Below, one piece after another: positions 29,303 through 30,717 of a stretch of DNA of 38,459 nucleotides. The notes below the pieces were generated by a model. That model worked only from the letters and a program-made list of their open reading frames with translations, made no database searches and was not told the DNA's origin. Made by a program: the position numbers and the translations under genes. The stretch spans positions 1-38,459 of the IMG/VR virus record IMGVR_UViG_2896607866_000012. One strand, written 5' to 3'. This stretch comes from a virus. Its lineage: Duplodnaviria; Heunggongvirae; Uroviricota; Caudoviricetes. Numbering within the stretch: the stretch's first letter is position 1; the number at the start of each line of letters is the position of its first letter.

Positions 29303-29421
29303 TTTTTTCAGGTAACTCGTCGGCATCGCAGAAACAACAACGCTCGATCTGAAGTGGCACACTGAATTTGGCCACCTGAACAGAGGTGATATGCTCACCT
29401 CAGAACAACACAGGTGCTCCA

Positions 29422-29721
29422 ATGAAAAAAAGAAATTTTAGCGCAGAGTTTAAACGCGAATCCGCTCAACTGGTTGTTGACCAGAAATACACGGTGGCAG
29501 ATGCCGCCAAAGCTATGGATGTTGGCCTTTCCACAATGACAAGATGGGTCAAACAACTGCGTGATGAGCGTCAGGGCAAAACACCAAAAGCCTCTCCGAT
29601 AACACCAGAACAAATCGAAATACGTAAGCTGAGGAAAAAGCTACAACGCATTGAAATGGAGAATGAAATATTAAAAAAGGCTACCGCGCTCTTGATGTCA
29701 GACTCCCTGAACAGTTCTTGA
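29422..29721 (+). CDS. IS911 OrfA (HTH transposase subunit)
   Basis: ATG at 29422; contains A_AAA_AAG frameshift motif at 29673..29679. Confidence 0.85.
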
Positions 29722-30590
29722 TAATCGGGAAACTCAGAGCGCATTATCCTGTGGTCACACTCTGCCATGTGTTCGGGGTTCATCGCAGCAGCTACAGATA
29801 CTGGAAAAACCGTCCTGAAAAACCAGACGGCAGACGGGCTGTATTACGCAGTCAGGTACTTGAGCTACATGGCATCAGCCACGGTTCGGCCGGAGCAAGA
29901 AGCATCGCCACAATGGCAACCCGGAGAGGCTACCAGATGGGACGCTGGCTTGCTGGCAGGCTCATGAAAGAGCTGGGGCTGGTCAGCTGTCAGCAGCCGA
30001 CTCACCGGTATAAACGTGGTGGTCATGAACATGTTGCTATCCCTAACTACCTTGAAAGGCAGTTCGCCGTGACCGAGCCAAATCAGGTGTGGTGCGGTGA
30101 TGTGACCTATATCTGGACGGGTAAGCGCTGGGCGTACCTCGCCGTTGTTCTCGACCTGTTCGCAAGAAAACCAGTGGGCTGGGCCATGTCGTTCTCGCCG
30201 GACAGCAGGCTCACCATGAAAGCGCTGGAAATGGCATGGGAAACCCGTGGTAAGCCCGGCGGGGTGATGTTCCACAGCGATCAGGGCAGTCATTATACGA
30301 GCAGGCAGTTCCGGCAGTTATTGTGGCGATACCAGATCAGACAGAGTATGAGCCGGCGCGGAAACTGCTGGGATAACAGCCCAATGGAACGCTTCTTCAG
30401 GAGTCTGAAGAACGAATGGATGCCGGTGGTGGGTTACGTAAGCTTCAGCGAGGCAGCTCACGCCATAACGGACTATATCGTTGGATATTACAGTGCACTA
30501 AGACCGCACGAATATAACGGTGGGTTACCCCCAAACGAATCGGAAAATCGATACTGGAAAAACTCTAACTCGGTGGCCAGTTTTTGTTGA
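29718..30590 (+). CDS. IS911 OrfB (DDE catalytic domain; made as OrfAB by -1 frameshift)
   Basis: -1 frame relative to OrfA; DDE integrase-type motifs. Confidence 0.8.
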
Positions 30591-30717
30591 CCACTTCAAT
30601 CATGTTGAAAGCCGATTCGTAGAACTGTTTTTGCTGAGTGTCGCTGAGACAGGAAAAGAGCGACGTTACGATGATTTTATTAATTGCATTATCAAGTTCT
30701 TTTTCATCAAAAGTCAT

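Follow-up and report, generated by a model that had tools for sequence, protein, structure and literature searches.

The DNA analysed here is IMG/VR virus record IMGVR_UViG_2896607866_000012, taken over its full 38,459 nucleotides (nt) and called the window below. It carries an SfV-like prophage of the Caudoviricetes that lies in reverse orientation to the record of phage SfV (U82619.2). In this prophage the repressor gene cI is followed by an intrinsic terminator and a PL-like promoter, and the genes of the early-left region (orf33, yfdP/orf32, yfdQ, yfdR and onward to xis and int) all read on the plus strand. A copy of the insertion sequence (IS) IS911 sits between orf33 and yfdP, within a minus-strand open reading frame (ORF) of 81 codons that converges on orf33 and overlaps its 3' end. 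The features of this region, and three further IS elements discussed at the end, are collected in Table 1.

Table 1. Positions of the features considered in the window (HTH, helix-turn-helix; aa, amino acids).
Feature	Position	Strand	Basis or remark
Intrinsic terminator after cI	28845..28870	+	terminator scan; also annotated in the SfV record
PL-like sigma-70 promoter, TTGACA-16-CATAAT	28873..28900	+	11 of 12 consensus positions; immediately follows the cI terminator
orf33, 91 aa, intact, first gene after the PL-like promoter	29027..29302	+	phrog_3195; homologues; dN/dS
3' part of the 81-aa gene, codons 40-81 and stop; last 83 nt overlap orf33	29220..29349	-	in silico excision
Target-site duplication, left ATC	29347..29349		read directly; one ATC at the SfV empty site
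IS911, complete copy, 1249 bp	29350..30598	+	full-length 99.8% identity to E. coli copies; ends read directly
Left inverted repeat (IRL), starts TGAAGTGG	29350..29385	+	comparison of both ends
orfA, 100 aa, HTH	29422..29724	+	translation; Pfam HTH_Tnp_1
orfAB, predicted transposase, 389 aa, via -1 frameshift	29422..30590	+	open fusion frame, no stops
A_AAA_AAG, -1 programmed frameshift motif, frame 0 of orfA	29673..29679	+	read from sequence
Right inverted repeat (IRR), ends CCACTTCA	30563..30598	-	comparison of both ends
Target-site duplication, right ATC	30599..30601		read directly; one ATC at the SfV empty site
5' part of the 81-aa gene, codons 1-39 and start of codon 40	30602..30717	-	reads on into IRR
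Promoter-like element upstream of the 81-aa gene, TTCACC-16-TATCCT preceded by TG	30749..30776	-	hexamer conservation, 7 loci
IS1, interrupts yfdP/orf32	31242..32009
IS66-family element, tnpA and tnpB intact, tnpC split in two	33008..35755
IS3-family element, replaces SfV 21580-23041 (orf28, orf29, xis, part of int)	36268..37530

IS911 is a thoroughly characterised element of the IS3 family, first described from Shigella dysenteriae. Read directly from the window, its left end is TGAAGTGGCACAC at 29350 and its right end GACCACTTCA at 30598, giving TG...CA termini; the outer eight bases of the two ends are identical (8/8), as are 25 of the first 40, and the terminal repeats are given the 36-bp extent usual for IS911. 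Across 1249 of 1249 nt the element matches several Escherichia coli copies that the Prokaryotic Genome Annotation Pipeline (PGAP) names IS911 family; the nearest of them, in E. coli EC28, differs by 3 nt and 1 aa, and OrfAB occupies the same relative coordinates as its coding sequence called 'IS3-like element IS911 family transposase, programmed frameshift'. The fusion protein carries the Pfam domains HTH_Tnp_1 (1.5e-15) and rve (the DDE core; 4.7e-32) and scores 379.5 bits on the NCBIfam model transpos_IS3, for which the cut-off is 160. No inactivating mutation is seen in the sequence, and by all these features the element is a complete IS911 that appears to be functional. A preliminary description of the locus had proposed an intact element with OrfA, OrfB and the A_AAA_AAG motif, and the identity, the open 389-residue fusion and the HTH and rve domains bear this out. 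Reference IS911 is alike in length (about 1250 bp), in its imperfect TG...CA repeats, in the frames of orfA (0) and orfB (-1) and the A_AAA_AAG shift that fuses them, in both domains and in its 3-bp duplication; what differs is only the insertion site, which is particular to the S. flexneri lineage of the window.

When positions 29350-30601 (IS911 with one ATC) were deleted in silico, the flanks joined into a query of 1169 nt. Phage SfV has this sequence uninterrupted and with one ATC (99.3% identity over 1153 nt), as do 374 of the 5426 complete E. coli genomes searched; some part of the query is matched in 2899 of the 5426. Whole-genome comparison further showed the prophage to be collinear with SfV on both sides of IS911. 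Because the flanks are contiguous and collinear with SfV, we exclude an IS-mediated rearrangement and read the ATC triplets as a true 3-bp target duplication, which is textbook behaviour of IS911 on insertion, as known from the work of the Chandler laboratory. The opposing idea would make IS911 the scar of a deletion, an inversion or a recombination between copies, with the triplets alike by coincidence, and it can draw on the richness of Shigella genomes in IS911 copies that recombine with one another, on the presence of three other IS elements and one deletion within 8 kb, and on the 1/64 chance of a matching triplet on both sides. Yet the flanks rejoin exactly at a single ATC, are 99.3-99.7% identical to SfV and keep their order on either side, and we give this idea next to no chance of being right. 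On this comparison IS911 is a simple insertion, and we met no evidence to contradict it; the preliminary description, which had claimed a simple insertion and a 3-bp duplication of ATC, thus agrees with the exact empty site in SfV.

The junction created by the insertion was absent from the complete E. coli genomes (0/5426). One independent IMG/VR contig, which shares 99.85% identity with the window across 13.5 kb, does contain it, and the exact 50-aa fusion peptide that the insertion produces has been deposited from S. flexneri, on 11 contigs. The window is therefore of S. flexneri, and the insertion is a marker of that lineage rather than an artefact of assembly. As an event, it is of an ordinary and already known kind, with a copy already present in public S. 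flexneri genomes.

With IS911 removed, a minus-strand ORF is restored from the ATG at 30717, which is preceded by an AAGGAA Shine-Dalgarno sequence, to a TAG at 29220-29222. The preliminary description had correctly given the start, the stop and the split by the IS, and erred by one residue in the length, which is 81 aa and not 82; its overlap of about 80 bp with the plus-strand ORF at 29027..29302 is likewise in accord with the 83 bp that we find. IS911 cuts the gene at codon 40, and the present product comprises 50 aa (39 native residues, an isoleucine and 10 residues read from IRR), ending at 30565. The 81-aa protein matches phrog_3311, a family with no assigned function, end to end (E = 3.1e-55, residues 1-81 on positions 1-81 of 81 of the profile), a match that reflects prior gene calls only. 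Exhaustive HMMER searching found relatives down to 38% identity, with a range of 33-62% in a later alignment, and a scan of genome contigs with the protein gave no confirmed relative. AlphaFold2 modelled it as a three-helix bundle with a mean predicted local distance difference test (pLDDT) score of 79.6. The CCFC segment was considered as a defining metal site and rejected; it is kept in close relatives only, with RRTYC, GQAYC and QSFEV in distant ones. Deposits from E. coli (P0021, P0065-P0075) include many differently shortened versions, which stop at residues 38-50 or are fused to unrelated tails, one form being found on 231 contigs; it would seem that mosaic joints from recombination, or decay, are frequent in this gene.

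Upstream of the 81-aa gene, a hexamer pair of the form TT(C/A/G)(A/C)C(C/A) and TA(T/A/C)C(C/T)T recurs at 7 divergent loci, its spacing fixed at 15-16 nt and the sequence of its spacer variable. This is a sigma-70 promoter signature, and if it acts as we infer, it would yield a transcript of the 81-aa gene antisense to that from PL. The spacer holds an inverted repeat at each locus, with one clear compensatory change (in L090) and with stems that fall out of register in the distant loci; a promoter with conserved hexamers is probably a better reading than a conserved RNA hairpin, and the repeat may have an RNA-hairpin or operator role. The SfV record places a 'putative rho-independent terminator' at 25034-25066 (L001 4614-4646), which corresponds to about 30705-30737 of the window, around the start codon of the 81-aa gene. 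We saw no hairpin at that position, and the annotation looks misplaced.

The plus-strand partner, orf33, is annotated in SfV with 98 aa. In half of 80 close IMG/VR loci a break in homology falls 2-3 nt upstream of the ATG at 29027, and because this break adjoins that codon we take the 91-aa form to be the gene. In its 98-aa form the protein gave a full-length match to phrog_3195 (E = 6.7e-68), again a family with no assigned function and again a match that reflects prior gene calls only; relatives at 57-67% identity come from Salmonella and from metagenome and isolate assemblies. Homologues of orf33 and of the 81-aa gene, at 50-67% identity, are paired, convergent and overlapping at their 3' ends in five further divergent loci, namely L087 (Salmonella), L088, L090, L094 and L097, with an overlap of 74-176 nt at the three of the five where it was measured. 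The pair directly follows the prophage repressor gene in the window and in four of these five loci and lies beside lysis genes in L097, and in L096 a homologue of the 81-aa protein (42% identical) stands without orf33 between Q and a holin gene. The phage operon that flanks the 81-aa gene runs on the opposite strand at every locus examined.

Selection was assessed by the Nei-Gojobori method on the window and three divergent loci, confined to the parts of each gene outside the overlap. For codons 1-54 of the 81-aa gene, the proportions of non-synonymous (pN) and synonymous (pS) differences were 0.18-0.24 and 0.64-0.85, and the ratio of the corresponding rates (dN/dS) was 0.12-0.17, vs. 0.9-2.8 in control frames; for codons 1-64 of orf33, they were 0.16-0.26, 0.47-0.83 and 0.14-0.25, with control frames at 0.8-3.1. 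Ratios were computed only where pS was unsaturated, so that three comparisons of the 81-aa gene were computable and three were saturated. Polymorphism among the 80 close IMG/VR loci leans the same way, with four synonymous and two non-synonymous changes in the 81-aa gene and five of the seven common changes in orf33 being synonymous. Judged by these substitution patterns, both convergent genes are real, each under strong purifying selection in its own frame.

The preliminary description had held that only one of the two ORFs was likely to be real, in which case the 81-aa frame might be a shadow and the insertion effectively intergenic, or else orf33 an artefact. That protein-coding convergent overlaps of about 80 nt are unusual speaks for such a view, as do the calls of PGAP, which lists orf33 alone in E. 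coli GPEC1209, and of the vB_EcoM-720R4 record, which lists the minus-strand ORF alone; neither ORF belongs to a Pfam or NCBIfam family, and the structure model of orf33 is poor (pLDDT 50) and unusable. We nonetheless find it very unlikely, since the own-frame ratios outside the overlap lie far from those of both alternative frames, which are at about 1 or more, the two homologues occur together at all five divergent loci, the 81-aa homologue of L096 stands alone, and polymorphism within the species favours synonymous sites in either ORF. The same preliminary description had proposed removing the IS in silico and searching both ORFs against phage protein databases, with an intergenic insertion to be concluded if neither had homologues or a codon-usage signal; when this was done, the matches to phrog_3311 and phrog_3195 emerged, and homologues and synonymous bias were found for both. 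As both genes are real, the insertion of IS911 inactivates a genuine gene, while its partner orf33 is spared.

Taken together, we consider it very likely that a single IS911, complete and apparently functional, transposed into an SfV-like prophage of an S. flexneri lineage, where it landed in codon 40 of the 81-aa gene, itself real, and duplicated ATC. The insertion truncates the 81-aa protein and leaves orf33 and the PL-like promoter untouched, and it separates PL and orf33 from the remainder of the early-left region by 1.25 kb whose transposase genes read in the direction of PL. It may be a neutral or decay-type event, one among several IS hits on a prophage that probably can no longer excise. 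The 81-aa gene would normally be transcribed from its own conserved promoter and, because that promoter is its own and antisense to PL, the gene is probably a 'moron' expressed in the lysogen.

Some observations do not sit easily with this explanation or with parts of it. The putative promoter of the 81-aa gene has only 8/12 matches to consensus and was missed by the promoter scan. Neither the 81-aa protein nor orf33 gave a significant match in Pfam, NCBIfam or PADLOC, or to a defence or toxin-antitoxin family, and Foldseek returned no match at E <= 0.001 for the 81-aa model in the PDB and BFVD. The terminator scan predicted no intrinsic plus-strand terminator inside IS911, and a polar effect of the element on the early-left genes is a matter of inference. 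Finally, neutral decay and selected loss are not separable from sequence alone.

The preliminary description had also placed IS911 between a PL-like promoter and the early-left genes, and the promoter found directly after the cI terminator, together with the plus-strand order of those genes, is in keeping with this. The same two observations led us to reject a location of PL on the minus strand, ahead of the 81-aa ORF, under which IS911 would not separate PL from the early-left genes. The promoter is overlapped by ATGTACCC...ATACAT palindromic repeats that resemble those in the cI/cro intergenic region. The heptamer TGTACCC occurs 11 times in the window vs. 2.8 expected, three of the 11 falling at two regulatory sites (28075, 28880, 28900) and two more inside cI. 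We surmise that 28873-28900 is a PL-like promoter with operator-like repeats and a candidate for control by the repressor. The cI gene (224 aa) appears intact, and by the annotation of relatives its product is a LexA-family/S24-type repressor.

As to polarity, what is known of IS polarity in general makes it plausible that Rho terminates transcription in orfB, most of which is untranslated, and any polar effect of IS911 would presumably arise in this way. In uninterrupted relatives the PL transcript has to traverse an untranslated stretch of about 600 nt to reach yfdP, and a strong terminator-like hairpin of 11-13 bp followed by five T's (30971-31017, plus strand) precedes yfdP in the window and in those relatives alike. 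Because this hairpin already stands before yfdP and the operon is independently broken by IS1, the IS66-family and IS3-family elements and a deletion, polarity of IS911 would appear to be of little consequence and largely moot.

A regulatory or selected role may be imagined for the insertion, in which read-through from an SOS-derepressed PL drives the IS911 transposase and so couples transposition to induction of the prophage, or in which Shigella was under selection to lose the 81-aa gene. The transposase genes read in the same direction as PL, from which they lie 520 nt downstream, and no intrinsic terminator is predicted on the way; the intact appearance of cI would fit, as would the sharing of the insertion by at least 11 S. 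flexneri contigs and the frequency of other truncated forms of the 81-aa gene in E. coli. Clonal descent explains the sharing among isolates, however, and the E. coli truncations resemble mosaic joints and contig ends rather than repeated IS hits; in addition, the sequence at IRR, read directly, offers no outward hybrid promoter, and the accumulation of IS elements in Shigella prophages is usually put down to drift. We regard such a role as quite improbable and retain the simple insertion into the 81-aa gene, with decay as its setting.

Two RNA-like elements accompany the gene pair. Just 3' of the PL-like promoter lies a leader (28918-28975, plus strand) that consists of ACAGGCAGGACGCCCACGAAGTAGC, a hairpin with covarying pairs (UA/CG/GC) and then ATGATTCG. 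SfV, SfIV, e14 and prophages from Salmonella and from metagenomes all have it in nearly invariant form, upstream of ymfJ in the case of e14, despite the differing genes adjacent to it; in L094, it is found downstream of the gene pair instead. The leader has no match in Rfam, and it might act as an RNA element in processing, antitermination or regulation. The other element, at 30805-31020 on the plus strand between the 81-aa gene and yfdP, is a full-length match to Rfam STnc100 that stays below threshold (39.5 bits vs. a gathering score of 47, E 8.6e-7, with the SfV copy searched) and ends in the hairpin and its five T's. This flank may explain much of the wider matching of E. coli genomes to the joined query (2899 of 5426). 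STnc100 belongs with PasD to a known family of prophage-encoded small RNAs (bioRxiv 10.64898/2026.05.13.724894).

The pattern of pairing suggests that the two genes, orf33 and its 81-aa partner, move as one cassette, a mildly novel by-product of this analysis. Comparison with SfV is the most direct: the restored site is 99.3% identical and the cI terminator, PL-like promoter, orf33 and orf32/yfdP follow in the same order, whereas SfV has no IS at the site, annotates orf33 with the unconserved 98-aa start and leaves the 81-aa gene unannotated. The SfV record and PGAP thus each miss one member of the conserved pair, and both this and the start of orf33 (91 aa, not 98) are corrected here. Prophage e14 of E. 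coli K-12 has ymfJ/ymfI in the same slot, after a ymfK-type repressor and with the same leader element, and there too the first early-left gene converges on an opposite-strand gene, with a 3' overlap of 63 nt (L099 3998-4585). The likeness is one of layout only: YmfI and YmfJ have no detectable similarity to orf33 or the 81-aa protein, and as homologues of the pair they were rejected (best blastp E-value 0.6). In SfIV, other minus-strand cargo occupies the slot. Since e14 ymfJ/ymfI and the cargo of SfIV take the same place, the slot beside the immunity region is a variable site for accessory genes, and lysogen-expressed accessory genes are often located there. Lambda rexAB and Rac sieB are likewise small accessory genes beside the repressor or PL, Rac sieB being on the strand opposite to the early-left operon; like it, the 81-aa gene is antisense to PL and has its own conserved promoter-like element. 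They differ in having no homology to the 81-aa gene and in lacking a tight convergent partner, and PADLOC being negative, no exclusion or defence function is predicted for the 81-aa gene.

With considerable doubt, we speculate that the pair is a previously undescribed, mobile convergent cassette acting as a lysogeny/lytic toggle, or as an exclusion or toxin-antitoxin-like module, whose lysogen-side partner was lost in the S. flexneri lineage; this seems to us rather unlikely. The cassette would lie downstream of a major regulated phage promoter (PL at six loci, the late or lysis region at one). While PL is repressed, the 81-aa protein would be made. Upon induction, PL would express orf33 and silence the 81-aa gene, both by transcriptional interference and through mRNA complementary over 83-176 nt. 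Antagonism between the products might follow, as in exclusion or a toxin-antitoxin-like module. Apart from any such function, what this analysis flags is a compact, mobile, convergent and overlapping gene pair beside two conserved RNA-like elements, the early-left leader and the small RNA resembling STnc100/PasD.

The rest of the prophage carries further marks of decay. It differs from SfV in having four IS elements, in lacking SfV 21580-23041 (a deletion of about 1.5 kb) and in having divergent head and lysis segments: positions 11530-15355 and 17570-20845 of the window have no megablast match to SfV, the first probably covering portal, protease and capsid genes and the second the lysis and Q-proximal region. 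Because these two segments lack an SfV match, the prophage is a mosaic relative of SfV and not SfV itself. It is probably unable to excise. IS-riddled defective prophages are typical of Shigella, and from the make-up of its sequence this one is decaying in that manner. The early-right region holds a C4 antisense RNA (26728-26815, minus strand; 79.8 bits in Rfam) and, adjoining it, isrK (26840-26916, minus strand; 63.7 bits), both above their gathering scores.

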